This document shows positions 19,436-41,278 of a stretch of 64,000 nucleotides of DNA, piece by piece (position 1 is the stretch's first letter; every line of letters begins with the position of its first letter). The notes under the pieces were generated by a model. That model was given only the letters and a program-made list of their open reading frames with translations. It was not told where the DNA came from and did no database searches. Both the position numbers and the translations under genes were made by a program. Origin of the DNA: Candidatus Fermentibacterota bacterium (GTDB taxonomy: Bacteria > Fermentibacterota > Fermentibacteria > Fermentibacterales > JCC-6); contig JAUVIR010000002.1 in assembly GCA_030592645.1 (NCBI GenBank), positions 8,065 to 72,064 of the forward strand, given 5' to 3'.

Positions 19436-20176
19436 ATGGCAGAGGTACTCGAAAAAAAGATTCTGGACTTGCTTGATCGCAGGGAAGAATATGTCGGTCG
19501 CCTGAATAACCTGGAGACCATGAAACCGGATACTAATACCAGAGTGTACGAGAAGATCCGACAGGATTACAGTACCAAGCTTCAGAATGTGCTCGAGAAA
19601 ATAAACGAGCAGAGAGGCTCCCTCGAGAAGAAGGCAAAAGAGCTTACATCTCAGATCAGCCAGCAGGAGAAAACATTCACCGAACAGTCGGATCAGGTTG
19701 ACGAACTTCAGATAAGAGCCAAACTTGGAGAATTCAATAATGACAATGATGACTTCAAGAATGAACTCCACCAGTCCGAATCAGATCGTGATCAGACTTC
19801 AATGTCCCTCGACAAGCTCCGGAAGGAACTGAGTGATCTCAACGGTGTGCTCAGTGACGTAGATCACGCGACTTCCGCAGGAGTTCCCGGCGTGGATGCA
19901 TCGGTAAAACCAAGGGCGGATACAAGCGTCTCTGATGATGTCATCGATATAGAAGATGATGAACTTATTGAAGATGTCCAGGAGATCGGAGGCGATGATC
20001 TAGACGTAGATAGCGACGATATCTCCAGCGGATCTGATGAGAACAAGTGTTCCAGCTGCGGGCACGTCAATCCTCCTCATCTTGTGGTCTGTGAAGAGTG
20101 CAATGCTGAACTTGAAGACCTTAGCCAGGATCTGGATGACGAGTTCGATTTTGACGATATGGACGTTGACATCTAA
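19436..20176 (+). CDS. Hypothetical coiled-coil protein with an extremely acidic C-terminus containing a zinc-ribbon (CSSCGHVN...CEECNAE)
   Basis: AGGAGG Shine-Dalgarno sequence upstream. Heptad-like N-terminal region. Final ~80 aa are D/E-rich around a CxxC-x13-CxxC motif. Followed by an intrinsic terminator. Confidence 0.5.
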   Translation: MAEVLEKKILDLLDRREEYVGRLNNLETMKPDTNTRVYEKIRQDYSTKLQNVLEKINEQRGSLEKKAKELTSQISQQEKTFTEQSDQVDELQIRAKLGEFNNDNDDFKNELHQSESDRDQTSMSLDKLRKELSDLNGVLSDVDHATSAGVPGVDASVKPRADTSVSDDVIDIEDDELIEDVQEIGGDDLDVDSDDISSGSDENKCSSCGHVNPPHLVVCEECNAELEDLSQDLDDEFDFDDMDVDI

Positions 20177-20441: not shown

Positions 20442-21347
20442 ATGCCATTATCGTACATAGCCTTCAGGTACTATCGAAAGAATGCTAAAGACTCATACTT
20501 ATGCACAGATTCTTGTGAGGAACCCGATGTTATTTCCGCCGGGTGTTCGGTTGTTGAGGAGTTTTCAGGAGCGAGGGTTTTGACAAGGATTCTTCAAGCA
20601 TCCGGGATGCAGGCATCTGAACCGGAGATAACGGAAGAATCATCTCATGCCGAGATAACATCAGTACATGAGAGAACGGCTGAAACCCTGCCAACAGTAA
20701 CAGATTATGCCGTTCCTTCGAGAGGTAATCCCGGTTGCCTGACAGATGGTTCAGTAGAAGTATGTTACTCACCATCGTCTGGAGCTGATGCAATAGTCAT
20801 TGACCTCGGTGAGGAATGTAATGTAACGTCTGTTTTGCATGAGAAAGTGTTAGATATTTCTCTTGAAAGTACATGGACGGATGAATCCGTTCGAACTCTT
20901 GAAACAGCCGCTGAAGTTGAACCTTATCTGTTAATCGAAGTGGCAGGCTCTGACAGGGAGTTCTATCCATTCTTTGAGGAGTCACGGAGCAGTACCGATG
21001 CCGTTCGTTACATACGGATACGAGGAGCTTCGGGTCTTACCGAGATCAGTGTTTATGGCAGCAGAGGAGTTGTAGATACAGTCTCATCCGTTGAGATCAC
21101 CCGAAGCGCTGAGAACGAAGGATGGATGTTCGCAATTCCTGTTGCTGAGCGCAGCGAAGAAGCTGAGATAAGGATTTACGATGTTTCCGGCCGTATGATC
21201 TGGAGCGGTTATGCTGAATCGGGAAGCGTTCTTCACTGGGACGGTTTCACCGAGAACGGAACAGTTGTTCCCAATGGAGTATACCTTCTTCAATGCAGCA
21301 TCGGTTCAGAGATCAGTACCGGCAGCTTCGTTGTGATGAGGGAGTAA
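20442..21347 (+). CDS. Hypothetical protein with a C-terminal FlgD-Ig-like / T9SS-type sorting domain
   Basis: C-terminal ~70 aa (AEIRIYDVSGRMIWSG...NGVYLLQCSIGSEISTGSFVVM) match the Por/T9SS C-terminal-domain pattern. No N-terminal signal peptide in the called frame. Confidence 0.45.
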   Translation: MPLSYIAFRYYRKNAKDSYLCTDSCEEPDVISAGCSVVEEFSGARVLTRILQASGMQASEPEITEESSHAEITSVHERTAETLPTVTDYAVPSRGNPGCLTDGSVEVCYSPSSGADAIVIDLGEECNVTSVLHEKVLDISLESTWTDESVRTLETAAEVEPYLLIEVAGSDREFYPFFEESRSSTDAVRYIRIRGASGLTEISVYGSRGVVDTVSSVEITRSAENEGWMFAIPVAERSEEAEIRIYDVSGRMIWSGYAESGSVLHWDGFTENGTVVPNGVYLLQCSIGSEISTGSFVVMRE

Positions 21348-22387: not shown

Positions 22388-22531
22388 TGTTTCACCTCCA
22401 AATACAATAACCGATACATATCTGCAGCAATCCTGTGGTCAACCCTCACGATATTATCATGCTCAGGAACACGTATCAGCTCCCTTGATCATCGCAGCAC
22501 GGATTCAGCGCCGCTGGTAACCCGGAATCAG

Positions 22532-23845
22532 ATGGTCCTCCCGGTTCTCCAGGGGGGAGCAACTGGATACAGCGAGGTATCTTCAACGGACATACCTGCT
22601 TCTCTGGCAGCCAGCAGTGATATCCAGTACAGACCCGAACGTTTTCCAGGCAGGGGAGACATTAAAGAGCTTGTTGAGCGGATTCTCAGAAGCGAAGGAG
22701 TTCCCCGCGAGATAGGTGCGCTTGTCTGGATCGAAAGTGATTTCACTGTGGGTTGCTACTCCAGAGTTGGAGCCGCAGGCCCCTGGCAGCTGATGCCCAC
22801 AACAGGACGCGAACTTGGTTTAAAGATAGATGAATACATTGATGAACGATATTCCTGGGTTGCTTCCACAAGAGCAGCAGCTCGGTATCTCACACACCTG
22901 CACAACATATTCGATGACTGGTCTCTGGCGATTGCAGCATACAATTGCGGTCCGGGAAGGGTGCAGGCAGGACTTCGGCAGGGGGGCAGCACTTTCGGTG
23001 AAATTGATCTTCCAGGAGAAACGGACGCATTCGTCCCGCGGTTCGCTTCTGCCGCTGAGGCTTACGTTCAGGTAGAGCTTGATTCGGATAAGCTTGCTGT
23101 CGTCTGGATCCCTTCCGGTTTTGATCTTCGATTGCTTGCCGCTGAGACCAACCTTGATATAGATGTACTTATGGAGCTCAATAGATCGTACCTTGTGGAA
23201 AAAACACCGGCAGAGGGAGAAGCCTGGGAAATAGTCGTGCCTGCTGCATATGCCGGAGAAGTGTTCAATACTTCCTGGGCTATCGATCCTGAGAGGTACA
23301 TCGTGAAGGAGGGGGACAGCTGGAGCCGGATAGCTTCTGCGCTGGGCGTGTCATCGGAAGTTCTTATGGGACTGAATCCGGCAGGATCGCTTCAGCCGGG
23401 TATGTACATCGACATTCCGGAAAGCCAGCGCCAGCCAGTGAATGCTGGATACGTTGAAAACCCTCAGTTCATAAGGTATACCGTTCGCATGGGCGACACA
23501 CTGGGTGAGATCGCAGCAGGTGTAGGTGTGAGTTCAAGGGAAGTGGCCCTGTGGAACGAAATGTCACCTGGTGATACCATATTCCCAGGGGATGTCCTTC
23601 TGCTCCGCCGTTCCGGCAGTTCACAGGATCAGGAACAGAGCGAACCCAGACCCGCCCTTCCCGCTGGAGATGAAATAGATATAGTATCAGGTGGAGGAAG
23701 AGTTGAGCATACAGTTATTGAGGGAGATACACTCTGGGATCTGGCGATAAGATATGGGGTTTCCATAGAACAGATTATGTTCCTCAATTCGCTGGAGAAT
23801 AATGTACTCTCTTTAGGAAACATTCTTGTAATTATACCTGAGTAG
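22532..23845 (+). CDS. mltD: Membrane-bound lytic murein transglycosylase D-like protein (SLT domain plus three LysM repeats)
   Basis: SLT catalytic core (ESDFTV...AAGPWQLMPTTG) and LysM repeats (YIVKEGDSWSRIA, YTVRMGDTLGEIA, HTVIEGDTLWDLA). Confidence 0.75.
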   Translation: MVLPVLQGGATGYSEVSSTDIPASLAASSDIQYRPERFPGRGDIKELVERILRSEGVPREIGALVWIESDFTVGCYSRVGAAGPWQLMPTTGRELGLKIDEYIDERYSWVASTRAAARYLTHLHNIFDDWSLAIAAYNCGPGRVQAGLRQGGSTFGEIDLPGETDAFVPRFASAAEAYVQVELDSDKLAVVWIPSGFDLRLLAAETNLDIDVLMELNRSYLVEKTPAEGEAWEIVVPAAYAGEVFNTSWAIDPERYIVKEGDSWSRIASALGVSSEVLMGLNPAGSLQPGMYIDIPESQRQPVNAGYVENPQFIRYTVRMGDTLGEIAAGVGVSSREVALWNEMSPGDTIFPGDVLLLRRSGSSQDQEQSEPRPALPAGDEIDIVSGGGRVEHTVIEGDTLWDLAIRYGVSIEQIMFLNSLENNVLSLGNILVIIPE

Positions 23846-23849
23846 GTGA

Positions 23850-26800
23850 GTGAGAATAATGGCATTGTTTGAATCGGGATCCAGAAAGATACTGAAGAAG
23901 ATCAGAAAATTCGCCACTGAAGGCAGTGTAAACAGGGTTGCCTCTACAGTTAAAGAGGAAAAGAGTGTTCTCCTTGAAGAAAGCACTGTCGCATTGGAAC
24001 TGGTTGAACTCCTGCTTGACATAGGTCATCCGAATCTTGCTGCCAGTGTAGGCGAAGAAGTCATGCACCGTCACAGACAGATAGCTAAGGAAGTTCGGAA
24101 TCTTTTCATCGGCAGATTGAATGAATTCTCCAGATCCACAGACCTTTTGAGGGTGATCTGGAAAAGCTACATTGATATACATGATTACAGGGGCGCAATA
24201 AGTATTCTCCGTCAGGCTGATGAGATAACCGTTACAAGTCTTTTCGAAGTTATCAAAGAGAAAATGCATAGTTCAATGCGGTTTGATGGTACTGTTCACC
24301 CTGAAGCCGATCAGGACTCACTGGTCGAGTGGGGGTTGGCTCTGCATCGAGAGATCAGGTCGGGCGAGGCAATAGATTTTCTCTGGAAAGTGTGCAGGGA
24401 GGTTGAGTTTCCTCACCGTGATATATCCCTTCTGGCATTCTGGATGGGTAATCAGATAAAGAATCTGGACAGCAGCTACTTGATCTCACTTATGGGTATT
24501 GCAGCGGTCTCAGGTAAAATGGACAGGGCTCTGGAGTTTGCAAGCAAGCTGTCGGACAGTGAACCATCCCCCGATGAAGCTGTGGATGCCGCGAACGTTA
24601 TTGAAAAATGGATGGTACCTGCTGACCGTTCTGGTAAATCAGCATCATTTCTTGCCGAGATGTATACTGCAGCCGGTAAGACTGAGGCTGCATCAAAAAC
24701 TCTGGAGGGCATATACAGTCAAAGCCTGGACAGAGAGGAGCTGGAATCAGCAATTGAAGACCTTGTAGCCCATCCCGAAAGCGGCGCAGCTCCCCTTCTG
24801 CTTTCAGCCCAGATCAACCTGGAAAAGGGAAGAATTCCCGAAGCTTCAGAAGCTCTCGAGAGAGCATTTGAAGCGGGGGGTGCCGATAGCCGGAAACTGA
24901 TCGATATCTGCCGTGATATTCTTAACGAAACCGGTGACAATACAGGTACATTAGCAGTTAAACTCGCAAGTTACCTTGTTGAAAGCGGAGATATCAAGGA
25001 TGCTGTTTTTGCTTTACTTCCGATAATTGACGCGGATTCGGCGTTTGTTTTTGAACACGTGGAAAAGCTGATCATCAGAGACAGTAATAACTCTTACGTC
25101 CTTTCTTTGCTTGCCGCGGTACTCTTTGAAACGGGAAAGAGGAGTGAGGCTTCCGCCACTCTTCAGTATCTGTCAAAAAGAACGGAAAAAAAGTTCTGCA
25201 GCGAGGCAGCAGCTGTATTTGATGTACTGGAGAGTCAGATTGAAAAATATCCCGAGCTTAGAGAAGCAAGAGCCCTTTTCAGGTTTCATTCAGAGAGGGA
25301 GCAGGATGCAGCTGAAGACTGGTTCAAGCTTCTGCTTAAGGGTAGAAACCCTTCACAGGAAGGCCAGGAATTACTGAGGAAAGATAAAATTTCTGTTGGA
25401 TCAGTACAGCAGATCACAGATGCCGGTTTCAGCCCGAATACTCCATGGCAGGCGTTGGTGGTAGCACTGATCTGTTTGCGGGAGAGTAATATGGAGCATG
25501 TGGGCAAACACCTTGTCAGGGCGATGGAAACCCCTGAGCTTCAGGAAGTCGTTATCGACAGAATCGCAAAACTGCCGGATGATCTTCGCGATCAGCTTGA
25601 CCTGCAGTTGATATTCACGAAAATAACCCCCGGAAGGGCTGCTGAATCACTCGCATCGATTCTTGAGACGATTGAGGGAGGCGAAGACTGGAAGATCGCT
25701 CTTGCAACGGAACTCAAGTGGGATAATCCCGCAGAGGAGGCTCAATTCAAATTCAAGTATCTGCTTTCGCGGAACAGGGTTGTTCTTGCAGGATCATCCT
25801 ACATAGAAGGTAGTATTGGCGAACCTCTTATCGATTCTGTTGCACAGGCTTGCTCTGAAACGCTGAGGGACAGGTACAATGAGGCTCTGGATCTTCTTGC
25901 AAAACCTGTGAAAAGATCCTGGTCAAGCATACTGGCCAGAACCGTATTGGAATTCATACTGCCGAAAGCACCCGCTCTGGGTCTTCAGATCAGAAAGCTT
26001 ATCGCTGAATCATACAAGACTGAAAAAAGCTTCGGTGATGTGTCAGCCATATTGGCCCCTGTATTAAGTGAAGATGGCGTACTGGAATTACTTGAGAGTA
26101 TGGTCGAAGACCATCCTGGAGAGTACGACCTTCTGGATTCACTTACACGAACTGCCGCATCAAGGGGGGACTTTCAAAGATTTCATGAATATTCTGCCGT
26201 TATGCTCGATATTGATTCGGGCATAGCTGAAGAACTTGTAAATATGGCCCTTTCCATGGCAGCTGAAAGTGAGTCCGGCAGAGCATATCTATATGCCGCA
26301 AGATTAGCTTCCCGCTACAGGATCGATGCCGATACCGATGATCTGATCACGAAGGCAGTACTTATTCTTCCCGAGCTCTCTGAAGAAGGGATAGTCGAGG
26401 AGTTTCACAATAAGATAGGATCTGCTTCAGGAGCTTTATGCGCCGCAGCGTCTGGAAACGCATCTGCCTTCAGCAGTATCTGCAGAAATAATCCCGGCAT
26501 CAGCATTCCTCTGAATGAAACGATTATTGATATAGCTTCGCTTGACTGGACCCCCGAAGAGAATGCGGAAGCTCTTCTTGATCTGGCCGGACAGGCTCTA
26601 ACCGCTGGATTTCCACAGAAAGCGGAGAGTATACTGTGTGATCTTGCTTTGAAGAGCGATCCTCCATGGAATATAGAGGCGTCAAGGAAGATGCTCGCTG
26701 AGGTCGTAGCCGGAAAAGTAGACAGGATCAGATTCTGGGAATCAGTCAAAGCTGATGCTGTTGTTGCAGAAGCACTTGATAAACTCTTCCCCGAAGGATT

Positions 26801-27527
26801 CGGGAAAATAAGCACTGATGAGGCTAGAGTTATTGCCCCGGCAGTGCTCAACTCCGGTCAGGGAATCAGAAGACTGTTCAAGCTTGCGAATGATGAACTG
26901 TTCTTTCCTCCGGACGATCTTCCGCTCCGAAAGAAACTGGCTGAAACCTGCATGAGCAGCCTTGATGAAATGACGGATGAAGATACTCTTTCACCTGGTG
27001 AAACCGGAGAGCTACTGGAAATACTATTTTCGGCCGGCATGGTTGCCGATGCTGTTTCGGTTGCCAGACAGAACGGTTCGAACGAATTACTCTCCAGATT
27101 GAGAGATGGTCTGGCTGAAGCCAGAAAAGATTCAACAGGTGAGAGTAATGCTTTCAACATGGTTGTTTCCGGTAGATCCGATGAAGCCCTTAAAACTCTG
27201 GATGAGGCGGAAGATGAATCCTCCCGGGCTATGGATACCCGGGCTCTCGCTCTTTGGAATCTTGGATTCAGAGATCGGGCTATTTCAGCATGGATGAACG
27301 AATACAGAAGAACGGAAGACGCTGCTCCCCTGAAGAGGCTTTTCTGGGCTCTTGAACAGGCAGGTGCTCCCATGGAAAGAATAGCCCTGCGCAGATTCAT
27401 TGCCGGGAAATTTCCCGTACTTGCAGGAGTGCTTAAGCAGGAGGGTTCTGCCTACAAACCGGATCAGATGGAATTAATATCAGGACTTCGTATCGAGACG
27501 AAAACAAAGAAGGTGAAAAATGGCTGA
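23850..27527 (+). CDS. Large (1225 aa) predominantly alpha-helical protein of unknown function
   Basis: Long open frame with GTG start 5 nt after the mltD stop. No P-loop or catalytic motif recognised. Repeated LxxALxxxG helical-repeat-like segments. ATGGCTGA overlap with the next gene. Confidence 0.5.
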   Translation: MRIMALFESGSRKILKKIRKFATEGSVNRVASTVKEEKSVLLEESTVALELVELLLDIGHPNLAASVGEEVMHRHRQIAKEVRNLFIGRLNEFSRSTDLLRVIWKSYIDIHDYRGAISILRQADEITVTSLFEVIKEKMHSSMRFDGTVHPEADQDSLVEWGLALHREIRSGEAIDFLWKVCREVEFPHRDISLLAFWMGNQIKNLDSSYLISLMGIAAVSGKMDRALEFASKLSDSEPSPDEAVDAANVIEKWMVPADRSGKSASFLAEMYTAAGKTEAASKTLEGIYSQSLDREELESAIEDLVAHPESGAAPLLLSAQINLEKGRIPEASEALERAFEAGGADSRKLIDICRDILNETGDNTGTLAVKLASYLVESGDIKDAVFALLPIIDADSAFVFEHVEKLIIRDSNNSYVLSLLAAVLFETGKRSEASATLQYLSKRTEKKFCSEAAAVFDVLESQIEKYPELREARALFRFHSEREQDAAEDWFKLLLKGRNPSQEGQELLRKDKISVGSVQQITDAGFSPNTPWQALVVALICLRESNMEHVGKHLVRAMETPELQEVVIDRIAKLPDDLRDQLDLQLIFTKITPGRAAESLASILETIEGGEDWKIALATELKWDNPAEEAQFKFKYLLSRNRVVLAGSSYIEGSIGEPLIDSVAQACSETLRDRYNEALDLLAKPVKRSWSSILARTVLEFILPKAPALGLQIRKLIAESYKTEKSFGDVSAILAPVLSEDGVLELLESMVEDHPGEYDLLDSLTRTAASRGDFQRFHEYSAVMLDIDSGIAEELVNMALSMAAESESGRAYLYAARLASRYRIDADTDDLITKAVLILPELSEEGIVEEFHNKIGSASGALCAAASGNASAFSSICRNNPGISIPLNETIIDIASLDWTPEENAEALLDLAGQALTAGFPQKAESILCDLALKSDPPWNIEASRKMLAEVVAGKVDRIRFWESVKADAVVAEALDKLFPEGFGKISTDEARVIAPAVLNSGQGIRRLFKLANDELFFPPDDLPLRKKLAETCMSSLDEMTDEDTLSPGETGELLEILFSAGMVADAVSVARQNGSNELLSRLRDGLAEARKDSTGESNAFNMVVSGRSDEALKTLDEAEDESSRAMDTRALALWNLGFRDRAISAWMNEYRRTEDAAPLKRLFWALEQAGAPMERIALRRFIAGKFPVLAGVLKQEGSAYKPDQMELISGLRIETKTKKVKNG

Positions 27528-28605
27528 CAAACCGGAAGTTGAGAACACTGATAATACTATGGAGGAACTGATTACCGGGATCGGGAAACTTGTTTACAAG
27601 CTTAATGAATCCGTGGTGAACATTGATACTCGTATAGAAAAGCTTGAAACAGGAGTTTCATCTCTGCTCACGGAGAAGTTTGAAAGCCTGACAGCAGAGC
27701 TGGTAAAGTCCAACGAGTTCCTTGCCGGTATCCGGGAAGACCTCGGTACTGCACAGGAGAAACTTCTGCAGACTCTGGCTGCAGGACCTGAGGATTCCGT
27801 CAATAAGGAACTGTTCTCAAAGGAACTTAGTGAAGTGTCCCTTCTGATCACTGAGTCTGCTTCATCCATCGAGAAGACTGTTACCGAAGTGATTGGTCAA
27901 TCCAATGAGAACAGAGGGGTTATATTTTCGGAAAACATCAAGATCATCTCCGATGGAATGGGCGAAATAACATCGAAAATGGATCAGGCCAAAGACAGCA
28001 TACAGGAGAAGCTGGTGGAGGTACAAGCTTCAACAGCCAAGGAAGTAACATCAATATCAAGCAGCATCAAGGATAGCACCGATGCTCAGAAGGAGCAGCT
28101 AGAACAGATGAAGGGTCTACTGACACTGCATTCTGTTGAAGTTAAGGATAACAGGGTAAAAAATCTGAACCGTTCCGCAATAGTGCATTTTAACAATGCC
28201 GAGTTGGGTCAGGCCTGCTCGGATCTGAAAGAAGCTATTGAACTGAGTCCCGAGAGTTCCGAGCTGCTTGCGAACATGGCTCACATTGAGGCATCACAGG
28301 GGAAACTGAAGGAGGCGGAAGAACACTTCAGAAAAGCTCTCGAAATCGATCCCGAACTTGAGCCAGCCATCTCCGGTTTAGGAACAGTGCTCCTGGTAAC
28401 CGGAAGATCCGCTGATACAATCGATTTTCTTCAGAAATATCTGAATGAGGATTCTGAGGCATCTGCCGGCATTATGATTGCCTTGAGCAGAGCTTACGTT
28501 TCCCAGGGCGACCATGCAAAAGCTCTGGCAGTACTGGAGAAGGCAGATAAGATCGCTCCCGGACACCCTGAGCTGGAACAGGAACTTGCCAAATACAGGG
28601 ACTAG
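27520..28605 (+). CDS. Coiled-coil plus TPR-repeat protein (CpoB/YbgF-like architecture)
   Basis: N-terminal ~220 aa coiled coil and C-terminal three TPR units (AIELSPESSELLANMAHIEASQGKLKEAEEHFRKALEIDPE...). Translationally coupled to the upstream giant ORF. Confidence 0.45.
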   Translation: MADKPEVENTDNTMEELITGIGKLVYKLNESVVNIDTRIEKLETGVSSLLTEKFESLTAELVKSNEFLAGIREDLGTAQEKLLQTLAAGPEDSVNKELFSKELSEVSLLITESASSIEKTVTEVIGQSNENRGVIFSENIKIISDGMGEITSKMDQAKDSIQEKLVEVQASTAKEVTSISSSIKDSTDAQKEQLEQMKGLLTLHSVEVKDNRVKNLNRSAIVHFNNAELGQACSDLKEAIELSPESSELLANMAHIEASQGKLKEAEEHFRKALEIDPELEPAISGLGTVLLVTGRSADTIDFLQKYLNEDSEASAGIMIALSRAYVSQGDHAKALAVLEKADKIAPGHPELEQELAKYRD

Positions 28606-30808
28606 AGCATTTGTATTAATACCTGTAATCGCAGTGCTGCTCATCGGATGCAGGATACTTCAGCCGGATGAAAACCTCTCATGCCTGCAGAGAAGCATCC
28701 TCGCTGAAGCCAGCGGAGATTCCCTGCTTCGGGAAGGGCTGGAAGAGCAGGCCAGGGAAGCTTACATCAGGGCTGCTCTTTTAAGGTTACCAGATGACAG
28801 TCTGAGACTTGATCTTGCCTGGAAAGCTGCCGGATCTTCTGATACTCCCAGTATAATCACAGCCCAGCTGCTTCTCGAGAGACCGGATTCCCTTGCTTCT
28901 TACAGAGCAATCGAGCTTGGAGGTGCCGGGGTCGGCATGGAACTTCTTTCCAGCCTCTCCCAAAATGATTGCGTAATGCCGGAATACCTTCGGCTGGTAC
29001 TTGCCGACTCACTTATAGAGGCCGACCTGGCCGATCTTGCTTTGCGGGCACTCAGAGGAGTTCCGGGCGACCTCCCCGAACGGGCTCTGCGGAGCAGAAA
29101 CGTACTTTTCTACAGGGGATACCTGGAAACCGGTCAGCTCACTTCAGCGGATTCTCTTTTAAATGAAGCTGAACTTTCAAGCGGGGATGAACTGCTGTCG
29201 CTTCTGTATCATTACAGGGGTATCTGGATGCTGCAGAATGGTCATTCGGGATACAGAAGCATTCTTCTGCACTCCTTTGAACTATGGCCTGCCGCTCCGG
29301 TTCATGCTGATGCATTCGATGAAATAAGGATGGAATTGCTGAATGACAGAGATTTCGCCGCTTCGGTTGCTGATCCATTCTACAGTGGAGGTCTATGGAA
29401 CGAATTGTATGACATAGCCATTAATTCCGCTGATCCTGATCCTCAGCTTTGGTATCTTGCTGCTCGTACAAGGGATAGATTGGGTTTCTACGATGCAGCG
29501 GTCAGCATGCTTGATGAGTATCTTGTCAGATGGCCCGCCTCAGAGGGTGCAGCGAATGCGATGATCTATCTGGGGAGGGATCTTGGACGCTCTGGTAACT
29601 GGCAGAGGGGACTTGCGGTTCTGAAGCAGTACGGAGAGGTGTATCCGGAGCATTACAGGATAGGTAACCTCCCATGGTACATCGGTGATCTGCTGGTTGA
29701 GAACAGGCTCTGGCAGCAGGCTATCCCATGGTTCCGCATAACACTTGAACGTTACCCGAACAATGTTACTGCAGACGATGCCCATTTCTATCTCTGCTTC
29801 TCACTCCTCAAATCCGGAATGATTCCCGATGCTCTGAGCGAGCTGCAAACATTCATCTCCAGATGGTCAGGCAGTGTATACCTTTCATCCGCCAAGTACT
29901 GGCTTGGTAAACTCCTCCTGGCAGAGGGTAATCCTGCGGGCGCAGTTATACTTGAGAACCTGATCCAGTCTTTTCCCGCTAGCCTTCCGGCTTACTTTGC
30001 AAGAGAACTTCTGGGGCAACCGGCCTGGGAGCCTGAGTTCACCGAAGAACCCCTGGCTGAATGGATGGCGAGGCATGGACACGCTCCTTCCCCGCCGCCT
30101 GCAGCCGCGCTTAGAGGGTTGTTCCTTCAGGAGGCCGGTCTGAGGCATTTTGCAGATGGTGAGTTCCGGATGGCGGAAGAGATCGTCGGTGGACCCGACT
30201 ACCTTGCTCCTTTTTATCTCGAAAATGATGTATGGGAACGCAGACCGATATCGGGATACAATATGTGGAACCTCTCAGACAGTGACAGCGACAGGCCAAA
30301 GGAACTGTGGATGCTTCGCTACCAGATGGCATGGCCGGAGCTTGTTGTCCCGGCAGGTGAGAAATACGGATTGGATTCCCTCTTCGCATGGGCGATAATC
30401 AGGAACGAAAGCATGTTCCAGCCGACCTGCTACTCGGTTGCCGGTGCAAGAGGTCTTATTCAGATGATCCCGAGCACCTCTGAATATGTTGCGATTGAAC
30501 AGGGATGGAACGATTATTCTCCGGACAGGCTTTACGATCCTGCTGTTTCCATAGAATACGGGATCAGCTACATCTCGGGAGTTAACCGGGATTTAGGAGG
30601 AGACCCTGTGTTCACCGCAGCCGCATACAACGGGGGGCCGCATAACGCTGTTCACTGGGGTGCTGAGGATATGGAGCCGGACGAGTTCTTCTCGCTTATA
30701 ACTTACAATGAAACGAAAAGCTATACGCAGAATGTTCATCACGCTTATATGATCTATAAGGCGTTGTATCTGGGGCCGGGCGTCACTTCTGGTCACTTGC
30801 AAAGGTAA
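28514..30808 (+). CDS. slt: Soluble lytic transglycosylase Slt70-like (superhelical N-domain plus C-terminal SLT domain). Start uncertain.
   Basis: C-terminal SLT core (AWAIIRNESMFQP...GARGLIQMIPST, AAYNGGPHNA). Internal lipobox-like LLIGC about 40 aa into the called frame. The 3' end runs into palindromic element 30772-30833. Confidence 0.7.
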   Translation: MQKLWQYWRRQIRSLPDTLSWNRNLPNTGTRAFVLIPVIAVLLIGCRILQPDENLSCLQRSILAEASGDSLLREGLEEQAREAYIRAALLRLPDDSLRLDLAWKAAGSSDTPSIITAQLLLERPDSLASYRAIELGGAGVGMELLSSLSQNDCVMPEYLRLVLADSLIEADLADLALRALRGVPGDLPERALRSRNVLFYRGYLETGQLTSADSLLNEAELSSGDELLSLLYHYRGIWMLQNGHSGYRSILLHSFELWPAAPVHADAFDEIRMELLNDRDFAASVADPFYSGGLWNELYDIAINSADPDPQLWYLAARTRDRLGFYDAAVSMLDEYLVRWPASEGAANAMIYLGRDLGRSGNWQRGLAVLKQYGEVYPEHYRIGNLPWYIGDLLVENRLWQQAIPWFRITLERYPNNVTADDAHFYLCFSLLKSGMIPDALSELQTFISRWSGSVYLSSAKYWLGKLLLAEGNPAGAVILENLIQSFPASLPAYFARELLGQPAWEPEFTEEPLAEWMARHGHAPSPPPAAALRGLFLQEAGLRHFADGEFRMAEEIVGGPDYLAPFYLENDVWERRPISGYNMWNLSDSDSDRPKELWMLRYQMAWPELVVPAGEKYGLDSLFAWAIIRNESMFQPTCYSVAGARGLIQMIPSTSEYVAIEQGWNDYSPDRLYDPAVSIEYGISYISGVNRDLGGDPVFTAAAYNGGPHNAVHWGAEDMEPDEFFSLITYNETKSYTQNVHHAYMIYKALYLGPGVTSGHLQR

Positions 30809-30838: not shown

Positions 30839-31852
30839 TTAGATAAATTCTTCGGTAGTGAACACTCTCAGTACTTCACCATCCTGCACCAGCTCTATCC
30901 AGGCCAGGTATTTGCCATCCGGTGACAGGACAGGCTGAGTTGCCCATTCCCCCTGCCGGGATGCCTGAGTGAGATAATCGGATTCCCTGTTCATTATCCA
31001 TACCGTTGTTGGATCTTCCCATGAACGTCCGAAGTCCGCTACCGGGAAAGGATCTTTCCTGCAGAATGCCAGTAACTGTCCATCCAGAACAGCGGAAACC
31101 TGGCTTGCGTTATCCATGAATACTTTGTCGATGCCAGATTCAATGTTGAGAAATCTCAATTCCCAATCTCCCCATCCGCCTATCTGGAACAGAAGCACCC
31201 TGTCGGTTATCCACACAGGGTTGGATTCATGCCAGTCCCACCTGTAGAAAGTCGTATCGGCTCTGGCCCTTCTTCCCGAAGGCGCGGAGGCACCGATGAT
31301 ATACAGCTCCTCATACCAGGTTGGATTCATTGCAAAATTCATGCATGCGATATTAGTTCCATCAGGTGATATCACAGGAGCGTTGACCCTGGCTTCCGAA
31401 TACTCTGGGAGGAGAAGGAAGACATCATCAGAAAACAGACCTGTCACGAAAATATCACTGCCAAGGAACCGGGTAGTAAAACAGAGGACCGGATCACGGT
31501 AATGTCCCCGTGGATCGAATGTGCAGGCAACTGCTTCACCGATATGTAAAGGCTGCCTGCAGGTCTGAGGGTCGTCCGCCTGGAAGTAGCGCACAGTTCC
31601 GTCAAGAACGAAAGCGACCCAGGAGCCGTCGGGGGTAAACGCGGGAGAGGCCGCGTTGCCTTCTATAACGGTTATCTGCCCTTTCTCACGTGTCCATATA
31701 ACAAGCCTGTCATCAAGGGCTGCCACAAGCATATCTCCGGTCGGTGACCAGGCGAGATCGGGAGGGTAGTCGTCGTACCCGTTCCCGAACACATCCGGCA
31801 GAACGGTGAGGGTGGTCATAACAGCAACAATACACAGCATGCCTCTTATCAT
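30839..31852 (-). CDS. Periplasmic WD40-like beta-propeller (TolB-like PD40 repeat) protein
   Basis: Signal peptide (MIRGMLCIVAVMTTLTVLP) and repeated SPDG/TPDG PD40 motifs (AFTPDGSWVAF, VISPDGTNIAC, VLSPDGKYLAW). Start placed at MIRGM because the longer ORF N-terminus is encoded by palindromic element 2. Confidence 0.6.
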   Translation of the reverse strand: MIRGMLCIVAVMTTLTVLPDVFGNGYDDYPPDLAWSPTGDMLVAALDDRLVIWTREKGQITVIEGNAASPAFTPDGSWVAFVLDGTVRYFQADDPQTCRQPLHIGEAVACTFDPRGHYRDPVLCFTTRFLGSDIFVTGLFSDDVFLLLPEYSEARVNAPVISPDGTNIACMNFAMNPTWYEELYIIGASAPSGRRARADTTFYRWDWHESNPVWITDRVLLFQIGGWGDWELRFLNIESGIDKVFMDNASQVSAVLDGQLLAFCRKDPFPVADFGRSWEDPTTVWIMNRESDYLTQASRQGEWATQPVLSPDGKYLAWIELVQDGEVLRVFTTEEFI

Positions 31853-31882
31853 CAGCGTTCCTCTCTTCGGGGCAGTCTCTTC

Positions 31883-31943
31883 GGGGCCGGACGTCACTTG
31901 CGACACTTACGAAACGCAAGTGTCGCAAGTGACGTCCGGCCCC
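31883..31943. repeat. Palindromic element, copy 2: 26-bp perfect inverted repeat with 9-nt loop (GGGGCCGGACGTCACTTGCGACACTT ... AAGTGTCGCAAGTGACGTCCGGCCCC)
   Basis: Arms 31883-31908 and 31918-31943 are exact reverse complements. Shares GGGGCCGG(G/A)CGTCACTT with copy 1. Preceded by an 11-bp direct repeat TCTCTTCGGGG x2 (31862-31886). Confidence 0.85.
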
Positions 31944-32741: not shown

Positions 32742-32818
32742 TATAGTTGTCAGAATGAATGAATTTTGTTCTTTTAAACCCCTTGACAAACGCGTTTCAC
32801 CTCTCTATTTCATTGCCT

Positions 32819-33838
32819 ATGCTTTTCATAAAACGGAGCAATTTCGATCAGCTTCTGAAGTCCCTTACCGGGGATTACAAAGTGTACGTTCCTCGCAGTA
32901 TGGGGAACACCACTGGCTATTCTCTTCTGGGCGAATCGGATACTAATTATGAGATTGGCGAGATCAGATCATTTGACCCTCTCAAATCATTCTATTTCCT
33001 GAGTCGGGAGAAGGTCGCCGAAGATTTCAAGCCGGATATCATTCGGGATGATAAACCTCCATGCATTGTAGGAGCCAAGGCATGTGACCTTAAAGGTTTC
33101 AGAGTTCTTGATTTTGTATTCATAGATGATGAATGCGGTGATCCCACTTATATGAAAGCAAGAGAAAAGGGGCTGATCATATCCGCGGACTGCACCGGAT
33201 TTGGCGAAACATGCTTCTGTACAGCGGTAGATATCGATCCCTGGCCTCAATCCGATTTTGATGTTAACCTGTCTCCAGTCGATGACGGTTTCATAGTTAC
33301 TACTGGAAGCGATAAAGGCCTCAATCTTATTGAAAGTAATAAGAGCCTTTTCATTGAAGCAACCGATACTCAGATTGAGTTTATTCAGCAGAATAGAAGC
33401 ACTGTAAAATCCAGTGTAATGAAAAGCGCCAAGGCGCTTCGAATCCCGGTCGCCGACAGACTCAGAAGAGTTATTAAAAAACAGTACGATTCCAATATCT
33501 GGAAAGATGCTTCTGAAGACTGTGTGGAATGCGGAGCCTGCAATACCATATGTCCAACCTGTCACTGCTTCCTGCTGTACGATCAGAAATCCGACGGCAG
33601 GCTTGCAAGGTTCAGAATATGGGATTCATGTATGCTACACGATTTTGCGAGAGTGGCCGGCGGAGATAATCCGCGGGACAGATTATGGATGAGGCTCAGA
33701 AACAGATTCGATAAGAAATTCAATTATTTCCCTGAAGTCCTGAAAGAGATCGGCTGTACCGGTTGCGGCAGATGCATAGCCGCCTGTCCAGGCAAAATAG
33801 ACATTAGAGAAGTTCTGGCAAGGCTGGAAGTAACATGA
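32819..33838 (+). CDS. Iron-sulfur subunit related to anaerobic sulfite reductase AsrA / sulfhydrogenase HydB (2 x [4Fe-4S])
   Basis: CVECGACNTICPTCHC and CTGCGRCIAACPG ferredoxin-type motifs. N-terminus (MLFIKRSNFDQLLKSL...YKVYVP) matches the AsrA family start. The ORF-track start at 32759 is likely too long. Confidence 0.65.
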   Translation: MLFIKRSNFDQLLKSLTGDYKVYVPRSMGNTTGYSLLGESDTNYEIGEIRSFDPLKSFYFLSREKVAEDFKPDIIRDDKPPCIVGAKACDLKGFRVLDFVFIDDECGDPTYMKAREKGLIISADCTGFGETCFCTAVDIDPWPQSDFDVNLSPVDDGFIVTTGSDKGLNLIESNKSLFIEATDTQIEFIQQNRSTVKSSVMKSAKALRIPVADRLRRVIKKQYDSNIWKDASEDCVECGACNTICPTCHCFLLYDQKSDGRLARFRIWDSCMLHDFARVAGGDNPRDRLWMRLRNRFDKKFNYFPEVLKEIGCTGCGRCIAACPGKIDIREVLARLEVT

Positions 33839-34650
33839 AGAATCCATACAGTTCAATTGAGGCAGAGGTACTTAAGGTAACAACCGAAACACCTTCAATA
33901 AAAACATTCCTTCTGAAACCAAAGGAAGAACTCACTTTCAAACCCGGGCAGTTCATGGAATTCTCGGTTCCCGGATCAGGTGAAGCTCCCTTTACACCAT
34001 CATCAGACTCACAGATCAAGGACACGATGGAAATAACCATCGTGAAAGTTGGGAAAGTTACCGATGCCATACACGAATTGAAACCCGGTGATACAGTCGG
34101 TCTGAGAGGACCATTGGGCAAGGGATATCCACTCACAAAATTCATAGGCCAGGATATACTGGTTATCGGTGGCGGTGTGGGGCTTGCCCCTGTCAGGACC
34201 CTTATGTACGGTCTTTTCCACATGAGAGATCAGCTTTCAGGGCTTGTCTACAGAGGCGGATGCAGAAATCCGGAAGAGTTTCTCTACCGCAAGGAGCTTG
34301 AGGAGTGGATGAAACGGGACGATATAGACATGAAACTTACCGTTGATCAGGGAGACGATTCATGGGACGGCCCTGTAGGAGTGGTTACGACTATCATGGA
34401 TGATATCGATGTTAATTTTGAAAGGGCAAAAGCTATCGTATGCGGCCCGCCAATCATGATGAAGTTTGCAACATTCAAACTGCAGGAACTCGGGGTTAAG
34501 GACAGAAATATTTATCTCTCCATGGAGAAGAATATGTCCTGCGGTTTCGGCAAGTGCGGACATTGCAGAATTGGCCCTTATTACTGCTGCAAGGATGGCC
34601 CTGTCTTTACTTACGATATGATCCGGGAATACCCCGGAATCTGGGAGTAG
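33835..34650 (+). CDS. FAD/NAD(P)-binding [2Fe-2S] subunit related to AsrB / sulfhydrogenase HydG / PyrK family
   Basis: FNR-like flavin and NAD(P) binding segments plus C-terminal CGFGKCGHC..G..YC 2Fe-2S motif. ATGA overlap with the upstream gene. Confidence 0.7.
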   Translation: MKNPYSSIEAEVLKVTTETPSIKTFLLKPKEELTFKPGQFMEFSVPGSGEAPFTPSSDSQIKDTMEITIVKVGKVTDAIHELKPGDTVGLRGPLGKGYPLTKFIGQDILVIGGGVGLAPVRTLMYGLFHMRDQLSGLVYRGGCRNPEEFLYRKELEEWMKRDDIDMKLTVDQGDDSWDGPVGVVTTIMDDIDVNFERAKAIVCGPPIMMKFATFKLQELGVKDRNIYLSMEKNMSCGFGKCGHCRIGPYYCCKDGPVFTYDMIREYPGIWE

Positions 34651-34657
34651 GATACCG

Positions 34658-35203
34658 ATGGAGATGAACAAAACAACATTTGATCAGCTTCACGGTAGAA
34701 TCGATGCTGTTGAGAAGAAAAAAGGCGGAAAGAAGCTTTTTATTGATCTGGATATCTGCAATTCCGATCAATGCGAGAAATGCGTTATAGAATGCAGCTA
34801 TTTCTATCATCATATCAACAACGGAATTATTTCTCTCATTGAACTTGCAACCTATGCCCTTATCTGTAGACAGTGCGAAGAACCGCATTGTGTAAACGCC
34901 TGCCCCAGAGACGCTCTTGAGAAGATAGAAGGCGGCGATATGCTCGTAAGGTATACTGCTCTTTGCGTTAACTGCCGTTCCTGCTCACATGCCTGTCCAT
35001 ACGGAACCATATATCCTGAAATCGTACCGTATCTTGCCAATATCTGTGATTATTGTGAAGACAGAGGGAATTATACCTGCATTCCAACCTGTCCATACGG
35101 TGCCCTGTCATCGGTCAAAGGAAAAGTTGAGGGAGAGAACGTATTCGAACTTGGTAATCGTCTTGTAGTACACTCCACTCACTGGGACAGGAGCAACGCA
35201 TGA
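34658..35203 (+). CDS. Multi-cluster 4Fe-4S ferredoxin (HycB/HyfA-like electron-transfer subunit)
   Basis: Four Cys clusters (CEKCVIEC, CRQCEEPHCVNACP, CVNCRSCSHACPYG, CDYCED...CIPTCPYG). Confidence 0.65.
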   Translation: MEMNKTTFDQLHGRIDAVEKKKGGKKLFIDLDICNSDQCEKCVIECSYFYHHINNGIISLIELATYALICRQCEEPHCVNACPRDALEKIEGGDMLVRYTALCVNCRSCSHACPYGTIYPEIVPYLANICDYCEDRGNYTCIPTCPYGALSSVKGKVEGENVFELGNRLVVHSTHWDRSNA

Positions 35204-36114
35204 CGTTCGTCTACCTGCTTGTGTTCGGTTTTGCAGCTACAGCAGTGCTGGGTCTGATCACCAGCTGGATAGACAGAAAAGTTACAGCAAGGGTTCAGTA
35301 TAGAGTAGGTCCTCCTTTCCTTCAGCCTTTCATCGATATAGTGAAACTTCTGGGCAAAGAAACCGTCATACCGGAAGGGGCTTCAAAGGTAACTTTCCTT
35401 ATTGCCCCGGTTATCGGGATCTCCGGTGTAATTGCAGTTGCAACACTGTTCTGGGTCAACCAGTTCTTTTCCGAGGGTTTTGTGGGAGACTGGATTGTTG
35501 CGATCTACCTCCTTGCAATTCCCTCACTCAGCATTATTCTCGGCGGATTTGCTTCAAGAAATCCTTTAGCCAGCCTTGGATCCTCCAGGGAGATGAAGCT
35601 TGTTATTGCTTACGAGCTTCCCTTCATTCTTGCGGCTCTTGTCCCGGTAATCGCTGCTGGCGGTTCCATTCGCTTGAGCGATATCATCAATGCGCAGGCA
35701 GGGGGAGTTTTTGCCGGCAACATTTCCGGAATACTGGCACTGATAGTTGCCATTATGTGCGTTCAGGCAAAGCTTGCGCTGGTTCCTTTTGATATCCCCG
35801 AAGCTGAAACGGAAATTGTCGGCGGTGCGCTTTTAGAATACTCCGGTCCGGGACTTGCCATATTCAGACTCATGAAGAACATGCTTTTCTTCACCCTGCC
35901 GTTCTTCCTGATAATACTTTTCTTCGGCGGGCTGCGATTGAACGGGATAAACATCCTCTGGACGATCCTTGAATACGTGGGAATTGTAGCGATAATAACA
36001 GTCATCCGTAATACCAACCCCAGGGTACGGATAGATCAGGCTGTCAGGTTTTTCTGGGGTCCAATGACATTGCTCGCTGTTGCTGCTGTTGTACTGGCAT
36101 TAAAAGGTTTATAG
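35200..36114 (+). CDS. Membrane subunit of group-4 [NiFe] hydrogenase, NuoH/HycD/MbhM family
   Basis: N-terminal R.Q.RVGPPFLQPFIDIVKLLGKE signature of complex I subunit 1 homologues. About 8 transmembrane helices. Confidence 0.8.
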   Translation: MTFVYLLVFGFAATAVLGLITSWIDRKVTARVQYRVGPPFLQPFIDIVKLLGKETVIPEGASKVTFLIAPVIGISGVIAVATLFWVNQFFSEGFVGDWIVAIYLLAIPSLSIILGGFASRNPLASLGSSREMKLVIAYELPFILAALVPVIAAGGSIRLSDIINAQAGGVFAGNISGILALIVAIMCVQAKLALVPFDIPEAETEIVGGALLEYSGPGLAIFRLMKNMLFFTLPFFLIILFFGGLRLNGINILWTILEYVGIVAIITVIRNTNPRVRIDQAVRFFWGPMTLLAVAAVVLALKGL

Positions 36115-36135
36115 AAGGGTAAGGCTACAACTGTA

Positions 36136-36558
36136 ATGAGCCTGAAATTGAAAGCACTCTTGAAATCGCCGTGGGTTTTTCATCTGTCCACCGGCAGCTG
36201 CAATAACTGTGATATAGAAATACTGGATTGTCTTACCCCCAGGTTCGATATCGAACGTTTCGGTATGCTGCTGATCGGAAGCATAAAGCATGCTGATGTC
36301 CTGCTTGTTACAGGCTCCTGTAACAGAATGTCCGTAGAGAGGCTGAAAGTCCTTTACGAGCAGGTTCCGAAGCCGTGCCTGGTTGTTGCCATCGGAACGT
36401 GTGCCGGATCCAGGGGAATTTTCAAGGACAGTTACAACTGCCCGGTACCGCTTGATAAGATAATACCTGTCGATGTTTACATACCCGGCTGCCCACCAAA
36501 ACCCGAAGCGATGATCGCAGGTGTGGTAAAACTGATTGAGAAAGTTGGCGGCGCCTAA
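36136..36558 (+). CDS. [NiFe] hydrogenase small subunit, NuoB/HycG/MbhJ family
   Basis: Conserved Cys pattern (GSCNNCDIE, GTCAGS, IPGCPPKPE) ligating the proximal 4Fe-4S cluster. Confidence 0.85.
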   Translation: MSLKLKALLKSPWVFHLSTGSCNNCDIEILDCLTPRFDIERFGMLLIGSIKHADVLLVTGSCNRMSVERLKVLYEQVPKPCLVVAIGTCAGSRGIFKDSYNCPVPLDKIIPVDVYIPGCPPKPEAMIAGVVKLIEKVGGA

Positions 36559-37031
36559 TGATAAGAGAAGAAATACTTCTGGATTTCACCAGCCGTTTTC
36601 ATGCGGATATTCTTGATCTGGAGGACAAGTCCAATACCCGGGTATATGTGGAAATCACCCCGGAATCCCTAGTGAGAATTGGAACTTATCTGTTCAGAAA
36701 TATCGGCGCCAGGTTCAATATCGCCACAGCCACTGACCTACCCCCGAAAATCGAGATACTCTACCATTTCCTTGTAGAGGATATCAATCTGCTTATCTCA
36801 CTTAGGGTTTTCCTTGACGGAGAAAAACCTGAGATCGAATCCCTTGCGAAAGAAATAGAGGCTTTCAACTGGATAGAGAGAGAGATGAGCGAACTTCTTG
36901 GTATTACCTTCATCGGACATCCCGATCCCCGGAGGCTTCTCCTGGCCGACAACTGGCCCGAAGGAGTCTGCCCCCTGAGGCAGGATTATGAGGAGTGGGA
37001 TGAAACAGTCGACAGGACGAGAGGTGTATAA
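36558..37031 (+). CDS. NuoC / 30-kDa subunit homologue (MbhK-like)
   Basis: Complex I 30-kDa family fold. Position between the small and large subunit genes. Confidence 0.7.
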   Translation: MIREEILLDFTSRFHADILDLEDKSNTRVYVEITPESLVRIGTYLFRNIGARFNIATATDLPPKIEILYHFLVEDINLLISLRVFLDGEKPEIESLAKEIEAFNWIEREMSELLGITFIGHPDPRRLLLADNWPEGVCPLRQDYEEWDETVDRTRGV

Positions 37032-38215
37032 TGGGTAAAACGATAATACCTATTGGTCCTTATCACCCTTTGCAGGAAGAGCCGGAATTCTTCACTCTTA
37101 CCGTTGAGGGCGAGACTGTTGTTGATATTGATGTAAGAATAGGATACAACCACAGAGGTATTGAGAAGCTGTCGGAGATGAAAACCTTCGAGAACAGCAC
37201 CTTCGTGGTGGAGAGAATTTGCGGTATCTGTTCCACAAGCCATCCGTACGCATATACGAGAGCTGTTGAAGATATCTTTCCCATGGAAGTATCCATGAGA
37301 TCAAAATACATCAGGACGATCATTGCCGAGGGGGAAAGAATTCATTCCCATCTTCTCTGGCTTGGTCTTGCCGGTCATTTCCTGGGTTACAACACAGTTT
37401 ATATGTGGGCCTGGAAACTCCGCGAGGAAATACTTGATGTCATGGAGATACTGTCCGGAAACCGAAACAATTACGCCATGTTCAAACCGGGCGGAGTCCG
37501 CAGAGACATTAATGCTGAGGATATTCCGATATGCATCAAGAAGATCGATTCCATTCTCCCCACACTTAATATGCTGAAGAAAGCCGTTCTTGATGATCCT
37601 GTGCTTCATGCAAGACTCAAGGGTGTCGGCGTTCTGAGCTATCAGGATGCCATTGATTTCAGTGCGCTGGGGCCAACATCCAGAGCTTCCGGTGTAGCCC
37701 GTGACGTCAGGAAGGATTCTCCCTACGGAGCATACCAGGAGATGGAATGGGACATGATCGTAACAAAGAACGGTGATGTTTTCGATAAAGCTGTTGTTCG
37801 CATACTTGAGATGTTTGAAACGGCAAAGATAATGAAGTACTGTCTCAATAATCTCCCGGACGGCGAGATAGACGCTAAGATAAAGGATATTCCTCCCGGT
37901 GAGGGGATAGGCCACATAGAGGCTCCAAGAGGAGAGACTTTCCACTACGTGAAAAGCGATGGGACGAACAGACCTATGCGGCACAAGGTGCGGGCTCCGA
38001 CATTCATGAACTTTCCCACCTACAAGGCAACCGTGAAGGGGCAGACTATTTCAGATGCAACTATAATCCTTGCCGCAATCGATCCCTGTTACTGCTGTAC
38101 TGAAAGAATAGCCGTGAAGGATGTTAAGGGCAGGATGCTCTATGACGGACAGGATCTTATCAGGCTCAGCCGCGAGAAGACCGAGAAGATGAAACAGAGG
38201 ATGGGGGTCAGATGA
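37031..38215 (+). CDS. [NiFe] hydrogenase large (catalytic) subunit, NuoD/HycE/MbhL family
   Basis: N-terminal RICGICSTSH (RxCGxCxxxH) and C-terminal DPCYCCTER (DPCxxCxxR) NiFe-ligand motifs both present. Confidence 0.85.
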   Translation: MGKTIIPIGPYHPLQEEPEFFTLTVEGETVVDIDVRIGYNHRGIEKLSEMKTFENSTFVVERICGICSTSHPYAYTRAVEDIFPMEVSMRSKYIRTIIAEGERIHSHLLWLGLAGHFLGYNTVYMWAWKLREEILDVMEILSGNRNNYAMFKPGGVRRDINAEDIPICIKKIDSILPTLNMLKKAVLDDPVLHARLKGVGVLSYQDAIDFSALGPTSRASGVARDVRKDSPYGAYQEMEWDMIVTKNGDVFDKAVVRILEMFETAKIMKYCLNNLPDGEIDAKIKDIPPGEGIGHIEAPRGETFHYVKSDGTNRPMRHKVRAPTFMNFPTYKATVKGQTISDATIILAAIDPCYCCTERIAVKDVKGRMLYDGQDLIRLSREKTEKMKQRMGVR

Positions 38216-39915: not shown

Positions 39916-39928
39916 TTGGGCTGAGAAT

Positions 39929-40925: not shown

Positions 40926-41278
40926 TGAATGCGTATATGCCCTATGTACTCTGCATGATACTCTTCAGCATCGGTATCTACGCGATCCTTTCAAAACGGA
41001 ACATAATTAAGATCATACTGGGAGTAGTGATAGCGGAGTACGCTGTGAACCTTTTTCTTGTTCTTGTTGCCTACAAGGTTGGAGGGAGATCGGCAATTTT
41101 CTCTGAAACACAGGTTATTCTTCCCGAATCGATGGTTGATCCGCTTCCACACGCTCTTGTACTTACATCAATTGTGATCGGGCTCGCCACTACGGCTTTT
41201 CTTATCGCACTTGCAATAAGACTGTACGGTAAATATGGAACCTTTGACATAACAAGAATGCGGGAGTTAAGAGGATGA
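40922..41278 (+). CDS. MrpC/MnhC / NuoK-like subunit
   Basis: 118-aa three-helix membrane protein. NuoK/MnhC-like. Confidence 0.65.
   Translation: MMNAYMPYVLCMILFSIGIYAILSKRNIIKIILGVVIAEYAVNLFLVLVAYKVGGRSAIFSETQVILPESMVDPLPHALVLTSIVIGLATTAFLIALAIRLYGKYGTFDITRMRELRG

Follow-up and report, generated by a model that had tools for sequence, protein, structure and literature searches.

How bacteria restrain and position the potentially lethal enzymes that cut their cell wall is poorly understood. To our knowledge, the known tetratricopeptide repeat (TPR) adaptors, NlpI, LbcA and CpoB, are all periplasmic; LbcA is a lipoprotein that acts in that compartment. NlpI, an outer-membrane lipoprotein (PMC7049810), and LbcA are functionally tied to cell-wall hydrolases (PMC7049810, PMC12569750), and CpoB (YbgF), the Tol-Pal-associated coordinator of PBP1B, resides in the periplasm, its gene being the last one of the tol-pal operon (PMC4458516). 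Here we analyse a 64,000-nucleotide (nt) stretch of contig JAUVIR010000002.1 from a Candidatus Fermentibacterota bacterium (the window), in which two TPR-type proteins, g2 and g3, are encoded between two predicted lipoprotein lytic transglycosylases, g1 and g4. The arrangement is unusual in that the TPR proteins beside these cell-wall hydrolases are predicted to be cytoplasmic. Our literature searches turned up no description of this gene cluster.

The Fermentibacterota, also known as Hyd24-12, are an uncultured lineage of the FCB group. Hyd24-12 bacteria are diderm rods that possess mreBCD/mrdAB and type IV pili, and their genomes encode no flagellar proteins (PMC5030696). Our preferred reading of the locus, to which we give a probability of about 0.45, is that g2 and g3 make up a scaffold in the cytoplasm, perhaps tethered to the membrane, that would serve the same envelope process as g1 and g4 through partners encoded elsewhere.

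Results

The block corresponds to four plus-strand open reading frames (ORFs) in the ORF list (n=4; Table 1). With the starts revised as described below, g1 and g2 are separated by a 13-nt gap, while g2 and g3 overlap by 8 nt and g3 and g4 by 20 nt; the tight packing reported in the initial annotation holds, and its junctions of 4-8 bp are replaced by these sizes. Promoter-like and terminator-like sites in the g1-g4 region showed no excess over shuffled sequence, and none stood out. Together with the packing, this is consistent with the earlier suggestion that the four genes are co-transcribed, which is a prediction from sequence. The order ppiD-like gene (minus strand), holA, a coiled-coil/zinc-ribbon gene, asd (minus strand), g1, g2, g3, g4 recurs in each locus that is long enough to show it, including those of Candidatus Fermentibacter, Candidatus Sabulitectum and locus L006, where g2 is only 26% identical, and the sequence beyond ppiD and beyond g4 changes between lineages. 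The linkage on which a four-gene functional unit had been proposed is thus conserved: g1-g4 are linked in all relatives found.

The g2 stop and the g3 start (ATGGCTGA in the window) overlap in all 20 loci scored in the Aegiribacteria clade, with overlap lengths of 4, 8 or 17 nt, and in divergent lineages the two genes are spaced by a 13-25-nt gap. The Shine-Dalgarno sequence of g3 is GAAGGTGA. The conserved C terminus of g2, EKVKNG (27490-27527), coincides with this Shine-Dalgarno sequence and with the g3 start codon; conservation of the tail may reflect the overlapping translation signal and not protein function. Antisense ORFs of 80-180 amino acids (aa) are present inside g2, g3 and g4 (for example 26858-27400 on the minus strand, 180 aa); we regard them as artefacts that shadow the long coding frames.

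All homologues of g2 begin with MALFESG, and we therefore place its most likely start at ATG 23859, which gives a protein of 1,222 aa and not 1,225. An AGGTGA Shine-Dalgarno sequence lies 9 nt upstream of this codon, and an in-frame TGA is found at 23847-49. The AlphaFold2 (AF2) model, built from a 9-sequence alignment, has a mean predicted local distance difference test score of 83.5 and contains about 75 helices arranged in two halves, with a low-confidence linker at 590-607. We detected no signal peptide or membrane helix in g2 (maximum 19-residue hydropathy 1.47), and found no catalytic signature. Searches of Pfam and NCBIfam returned faint TPR and LapB-like matches around aa 350-495 only, the LapB-like one at 30 bits against a cut-off of 363. 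The g2 family profile had no match among PDB sequences, and comparison of g2 with PADLOC gave nothing meaningful. Foldseek recovered solenoid scaffolds only (IFT139/TTC21B, Ski3, Ctr9, clathrin, mTOR), with template modelling (TM) scores of 0.08-0.17. The best structural matches, IFT139/TTC21B, Ski3 and Ctr9, are helical-hairpin arrays of more than 1,000 residues that act as non-catalytic assembly platforms; however, at these TM scores and at 8-13% identity the likeness indicates a fold class, not homology. The model thus predicts that g2 is an all-alpha TPR-like solenoid of the scaffold-type structural class, that is, tandem helical hairpins with no catalytic domain. The AF2 model, the profile searches and Foldseek agree with the initial annotation, which described a giant all-helical protein without a recognisable catalytic motif. 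The remote-homology and structure-prediction check that it suggested returned no known unrelated family, only generic TPR/solenoid likeness.

A search of 1.84 billion representative proteins with the g2 profile gave 24 matches, about ten of them full-length (1,162-1,234 aa) and the others fragments, plus two weak TPR proteins. Wherever the locus of a match was examined, it was a syntenic context of Fermentibacterota type, except for the two weak ones, and the homologues are named Candidatus Aegiribacteria or Fermentibacteria, names that assign the window to Candidatus Aegiribacteria. g2 thus represents a new orphan family within a familiar structural class, and this family appears confined to Fermentibacterota. 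The weak match that was compared (P0064, one of the two) was rejected as generic TPR similarity, with an hhalign probability of 52% over 145 columns. P0064 (L008 5272-10707) is a 1,243-aa TPR protein encoded downstream of an alanine racemase, a LysM/FlgT_C-like protein and a cNMP-binding protein; this cell-wall-flavoured neighbourhood may be a coincidence.

Two motifs of g2, RFDGxxHPxADQ and FLWK, are invariant in Aegiribacteria and are not kept in the divergent orthologue P0050, and the positions that do not vary throughout the phylum hold chiefly structural residues (L, A, W, G, P). On these two grounds a cryptic active site in g2 was rejected. Residues 9-19 (RKILKKIRKFA) form a basic amphipathic helix whose hydrophobic moment (muH), 0.94, is the highest in the protein. 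This helix and its net positive charge are conserved phylum-wide, and the rest of the protein is acidic.

In g3, residues 211-360 form a confident canonical TPR domain (Pfam TPR families and AF2), with consensus TPR, OGT, MamA and PilF as Foldseek neighbours. The orthologues are 306-361 aa long in the protein search and 462-641 aa in divergent lineages, and the length of their N-terminal domain varies greatly. Homologues of that domain occurred in the protein search only in records named Fermentibacterota. We conclude that g3 is a lineage-specific TPR protein. No signal peptide was detected in g3 of any lineage (maximum Kyte-Doolittle (KD) hydropathy 1.03 for the protein of the window), and no hydrophobic segment in the divergent orthologues. 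A longer N terminus is excluded, because a TGA lies in frame directly 5' of the g3 ATG. Since both g2 and g3 lack an export signal, both are predicted to be cytoplasmic.

The initial annotation assigned to g3 the architecture of CpoB. The likeness is one of coarse layout only, a helical/coiled-coil region followed by TPRs, and the helical region of g3 differs in being about 190 aa long and variable in length. The CpoB (NF008068) and tol_pal_ybgF (TIGR02795) models gave no match to g3 at E <= 0.01, though 24 other, mostly TPR, families did. CpoB is also missing from the 60 listed PDB sequence matches and from the top 50 fold matches of g3. Among the neighbouring genes that were listed or scanned, in the window as well as in the related loci listed, none is annotated as TolQ, TolR, TolA, TolB or Pal. 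With no signal peptide, no model match and no tol-pal context, we abandon the CpoB assignment. Like NlpI and LbcA, g3 is a TPR protein, and LbcA (PA4667) is one of the many TPR proteins that its TPR domain matches (5.6e-9); however, NlpI and LbcA are both lipoproteins, g2 and g3 carry no export signal, and the likeness is that of generic TPRs. PilW, Tgl and PorW-type TPR proteins are outer-membrane lipoproteins. Matches of g3 to the NCBIfam TPR models PilW, Tgl, GltE and FlcA are weak, far below the curated cut-offs.

The two outer genes were initially annotated as peptidoglycan lytic transglycosylases, an assignment borne out by their SLT scores and intact E-S motifs. The SLT domain of g1 scores 72.2 bits (E 3.4e-20; Pfam gathering cut-off 21.3 bits, PF01464), its three LysM domains score 108 bits (E 2.7e-31; Pfam), and its catalytic Glu lies in the E-S motif WIESDF. 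The top PDB match of g1 is 8rhe, with the catalytic I-E-S motif aligned. Its best NCBIfam match is the MltD equivalog (NF008050), at 129 bits against a cut-off of 508, so that g1 is predicted to be MltD-like, with a score below the equivalog threshold. It resembles MltD of E. coli and P. aeruginosa in its SLT domain, in its LysM repeats and, after correction of its start, in its lipoprotein signal, and differs from it in the number of LysM domains, three, and in the apparent ATA start in most Aegiribacteria.

As first called, from an internal ATG at 22532, g1 has no signal peptide. In frame upstream of this codon, however, lies a lipoprotein signal (…ILWSTLTILSC-SG) that is conserved in every related locus, with the consensus xLWS(T/S)Lxxx(S/A)C(S)G in all loci examined. 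At the codon at 22418, the window and at least 16 other loci have ATA, L001 has ATG and L020-L027 have TTG; the ATA sits in a conserved CGATACATA context. In tblastn, 15 loci align with the extended protein from its first residue onward. Because of the conserved upstream signal, the alignment of start codons and the tblastn alignments from residue 1, we place the g1 start at 22418, where translation probably begins at a non-canonical ATA. This suggests that translation of a potentially autolytic enzyme is initiated at a non-canonical codon, ATA, which is conserved and probably weak. Automated gene calls shorten g1 in the window, in L002 and in L004. The start placed here lies 30 nt from the divergent asd start codon.

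The C-terminal SLT domain of g4 scores 74.9 bits (E 4.8e-21; Pfam cut-off 21.3 bits), with the catalytic Glu in the E-S motif RNESMF, and the N-terminal ~570 aa form a superhelical TPR-like region with matches to TPR_16, TPR_14 and TPR_6 (Pfam). Its PDB matches are P. aeruginosa Slt, E. coli Slt70, other soluble lytic transglycosylases and a Cj0843-type enzyme. Like the Slt70/Slt family (PDB 1qsa, 5ohu, 6fbt, 5mpq), g4 carries a C-terminal SLT domain with E-S and AYNxG motifs behind a long helical-repeat region, and some of its orthologues have precomputed Pfam SLT_superhelical matches. In contrast to that family, g4 has a lipobox and is therefore predicted to be membrane-anchored and not soluble, and its N-terminal region contains recognisable TPR, YbgF-like and BamD-like repeats; it scores 78 bits against the Slt model PRK11619 (NCBIfam NF008631), whose cut-off is 536. 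The CpoB and tol_pal_ybgF models match g4 at aa 430-478. The best NCBIfam match of g4 is the BB0259 flagellar-assembly transglycosylase (NF047373), at 94 bits and thus below the cut-off of 234. A flagellar role for g4 was ruled out because Hyd24-12 genomes encode no flagellar proteins (PMC5030696). In two loci with distant Slt70-like homologues outside the phylum (L036, L037), we found no g2-like or g3-like neighbours.

Initiation of g4 at TTG 28586 yields MPNTGTRAFVLIPVIAVLLIGC, a lipobox signal with a hydrophobic N terminus (KD 2.35). The homologous position is the called start in L004, and the lipobox is present in every g4 orthologue; from these comparisons, TTG 28586 is most likely the g4 start. 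Family-1 (SLT-domain) lytic transglycosylases of different subtype are thus encoded by g1 and g4, and we predict that both are lipoproteins. Placing them in different classes, as the initial annotation did, goes too far: they share the same Pfam SLT domain and differ in subtype and architecture (MltD-like and Slt70-like).

Table 1. The four-gene block and the adjoining gene, in window coordinates.
Feature	Coordinates	Strand	As in the ORF list	Description
g1	22418..23845	+	22532-23845	Predicted MltD-type lytic transglycosylase lipoprotein; SLT and three LysM domains; probable start
g1 signal peptide	22418..22462	+		Predicted lipoprotein signal, M/I-SAAILWSTLTILS-C; Cys codon 22460-22462
g2	23859..27527	+	23850-27527	1,222 aa; predicted all-alpha TPR-like solenoid of an apparent orphan family
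g3	27520..28605	+	27520-28605	361 aa; long N-terminal helices and C-terminal TPR domain
g4	28586..30808	+	28514-30808	Predicted Slt70-type lytic transglycosylase lipoprotein; lipobox VLLIGC; most likely start
PD40 gene	30839..31906	-		PD40-repeat beta-propeller protein; N-terminal hydrophobic anchor or signal; outside the conserved block

The sequence of the window is that of an ordinary chromosome, with a GC content of about 48%. Genes for DnaK/DnaJ, MutS2, DnaG and a sigma-70 factor lie upstream of the block, and downstream are HypF and a ferredoxin/complex-I-like/[NiFe]-hydrogenase cluster. The minus-strand gene next to g4 had been described as a TolB-like beta-propeller adjoining the block. 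Its product does contain PD40 repeats (Pfam PD40, E = 1.6e-14), but scores only 26.6 bits with the TolB equivalog (TIGR02800; cut-off 343.15). Of the loci that extend beyond g4, only L012, the closest relative, has the gene, and the MLS_C locus (L004/L005/L019) keeps a remnant of it. It is a variable lineage-specific insertion and not part of the conserved unit, and the TolB connection falls with it. Its C-terminal end is 96% identical in L012, where the contig ends, and the L004/L005/L019 remnant, 64 residues at 41% identity, lies at the same position. The gene sits between g4 and the ferredoxin/hydrogenase cluster. That cluster (32759-42774, plus strand) encodes a Fer4_22 protein, an FAD/NAD-binding protein, a ferredoxin, an NADH-dehydrogenase subunit-1-like protein, 30-kDa and 49-kDa/NiFe large-subunit-like proteins and Mrp-type antiporter subunits, and is a membrane-bound group-4 [NiFe]-hydrogenase/complex-I-like module. 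Its first two genes, the two that were compared, are syntenic in many relatives, not all.

Upstream of the block, between holA and asd, a 246-aa protein is encoded (19436-20176, plus strand) that contains an N-terminal coiled coil (weakly EzrA/SMC-like), a C-terminal zinc ribbon (CSSCGH…CEEC) and a tail that is very acidic. Its conservation is phylum-wide, at 41-85% identity, and it has no family match; it could be a division or chromosome-associated factor. Between this gene and asd lies a gene for a 301-aa protein (20442-21347, plus strand) with a type IX secretion C-terminal sorting domain (weak CHU_C/Por_Secre_tail). It is found only in the close relatives L009 and L011, and in L002 a metallophosphatase with a Por_Secre_tail occupies the place; this looks like a variable insertion site.

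Discussion

In the reading that we prefer, the two lipoproteins g1 and g4 would cleave the glycan strands of peptidoglycan in the periplasm, and g2 and g3, predicted to remain in the cytoplasm, would form a non-enzymatic scaffold for protein-protein interactions. Translational coupling would give g2 and g3 a fixed proportion, and the conserved basic amphipathic helix at the N terminus of g2 may attach this scaffold to the cytoplasmic side of the inner membrane. Co-transcription would place the scaffold and both enzymes in a single envelope process, which would be the growth or division of the sacculus or the insertion of an envelope-spanning machine. Because g2 and g3 lack export signals, any coupling of them to the lipoprotein enzymes must cross the inner membrane, and we suggest that this link would be made by partners encoded outside the block. 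The same lack of export signals bears on the initial annotation, which saw in the giant protein a scaffold of a septal or peptidoglycan-remodelling complex: a direct periplasmic role for it is not predicted. A narrower version, in which a phylum-specific, membrane-attached g2-g3 scaffold positions or regulates both periplasmic lipoprotein transglycosylases across the inner membrane, we regard as unlikely.

Several points weigh against a shared envelope process. Gene order is the one ground on which g2 and g3 would be linked to cell-wall remodelling, and the adjacent ppiD-like gene, holA, the coiled-coil/zinc-ribbon gene and asd are equally syntenic across the phylum. Because these housekeeping neighbours are as conserved as the block, synteny has limited power to prove that g1-g4 are a unit; this region of the chromosome is simply stable. 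None of g1-g4 encodes a membrane-spanning partner, and a cytoplasmic scaffold would have no direct access to periplasmic lipoproteins. The structural basis is also uneven, since the predicted TM score (pTM) of the g2 model is 0.39, so that its overall shape is uncertain, and the three long N-terminal helices of g3 (aa 14-204) have low AF2 confidence. Finally, the absence of signal peptides from g2 and g3 is itself a prediction, and non-classical export is possible.

The same conserved order leaves room for another explanation, which we hold possible, namely that g2 and g3 act in the cytoplasm as a TPR scaffold or adaptor in some unrelated process (such as proteostasis, regulation or LapB-like control of an envelope precursor) and lie between two housekeeping transglycosylase genes in a frozen syntenic region. 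Indeed, the run conserved from ppiD through holA, the coiled-coil gene and asd to g4 mixes genes of replication, amino-acid biosynthesis and chaperone function that share no single role; g2 and g3 are predicted in a compartment other than that of g1 and g4; and the sole family-level matches of g2 are to generic TPRs and, weakly, to LapB. However, g1-g4 lie on one strand with gaps of at most 13 nt or overlaps and without an excess of promoter-like or terminator-like sites, whereas asd is divergent. Moreover, the genes beyond g4 and ppiD vary by lineage, and g1-g4 are never separated.

The known adaptors of peptidoglycan enzymes offer a further alternative. If g2 and g3 reached the periplasm by an unrecognised export route, they could organise g1 and g4 at the septum in the manner of NlpI (PMC7049810), CpoB (PMC4458516) or LbcA (PMC12569750), all periplasmic TPR proteins; their predicted co-transcription with two transglycosylases and the match of the g3 TPR domain to LbcA, one among many, fit this idea. 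We nevertheless consider it quite improbable, as neither protein has a Sec, Tat or lipoprotein signal or a membrane helix in any lineage, while the lipoboxes of g1 and g4 are clear, and as the in-frame stops directly 5' of g2 and g3 exclude an overlooked N terminus. The CpoB/YbgF models, moreover, miss g3, a tol-pal context is absent at the scanned loci, and the PD40 gene is variable.

Least probable of all, in our estimate, is that the transglycosylases and TPR proteins assemble an envelope-spanning machine (flagellum, type IV pilus or type IX secretion), with g4 making space as BB0259 does in the Borrelia flagellum, because, although BB0259 is the best NCBIfam match of g4, g3 weakly matches PilW, Tgl, GltE and FlcA, type IV pili are reported for the phylum (PMC5030696) and type IX-tail proteins are encoded nearby, all the BB0259, PilW, Tgl, GltE and FlcA scores are far under the curated cut-offs, Hyd24-12 genomes encode no flagellar proteins (PMC5030696), pilus or secretion structural genes are not in or beside the block in any listed locus, and g2 and g3 are signal-less, unlike PilW, Tgl and PorW-type proteins.

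If the four genes are not a functional unit, the analysis still corrects the starts of two ordinary transglycosylases, defines a new family of TPR solenoids and removes the CpoB and TolB labels from the locus. If they are, the phylum-wide operon would point to a different, cytoplasm-anchored control of transglycosylases, and would assign a function to a large family of orphan proteins from an uncultured phylum. Were the scaffold and the enzymes to prove a trans-envelope module, it would represent a lineage-specific control of peptidoglycan cleavage without counterpart in model bacteria.

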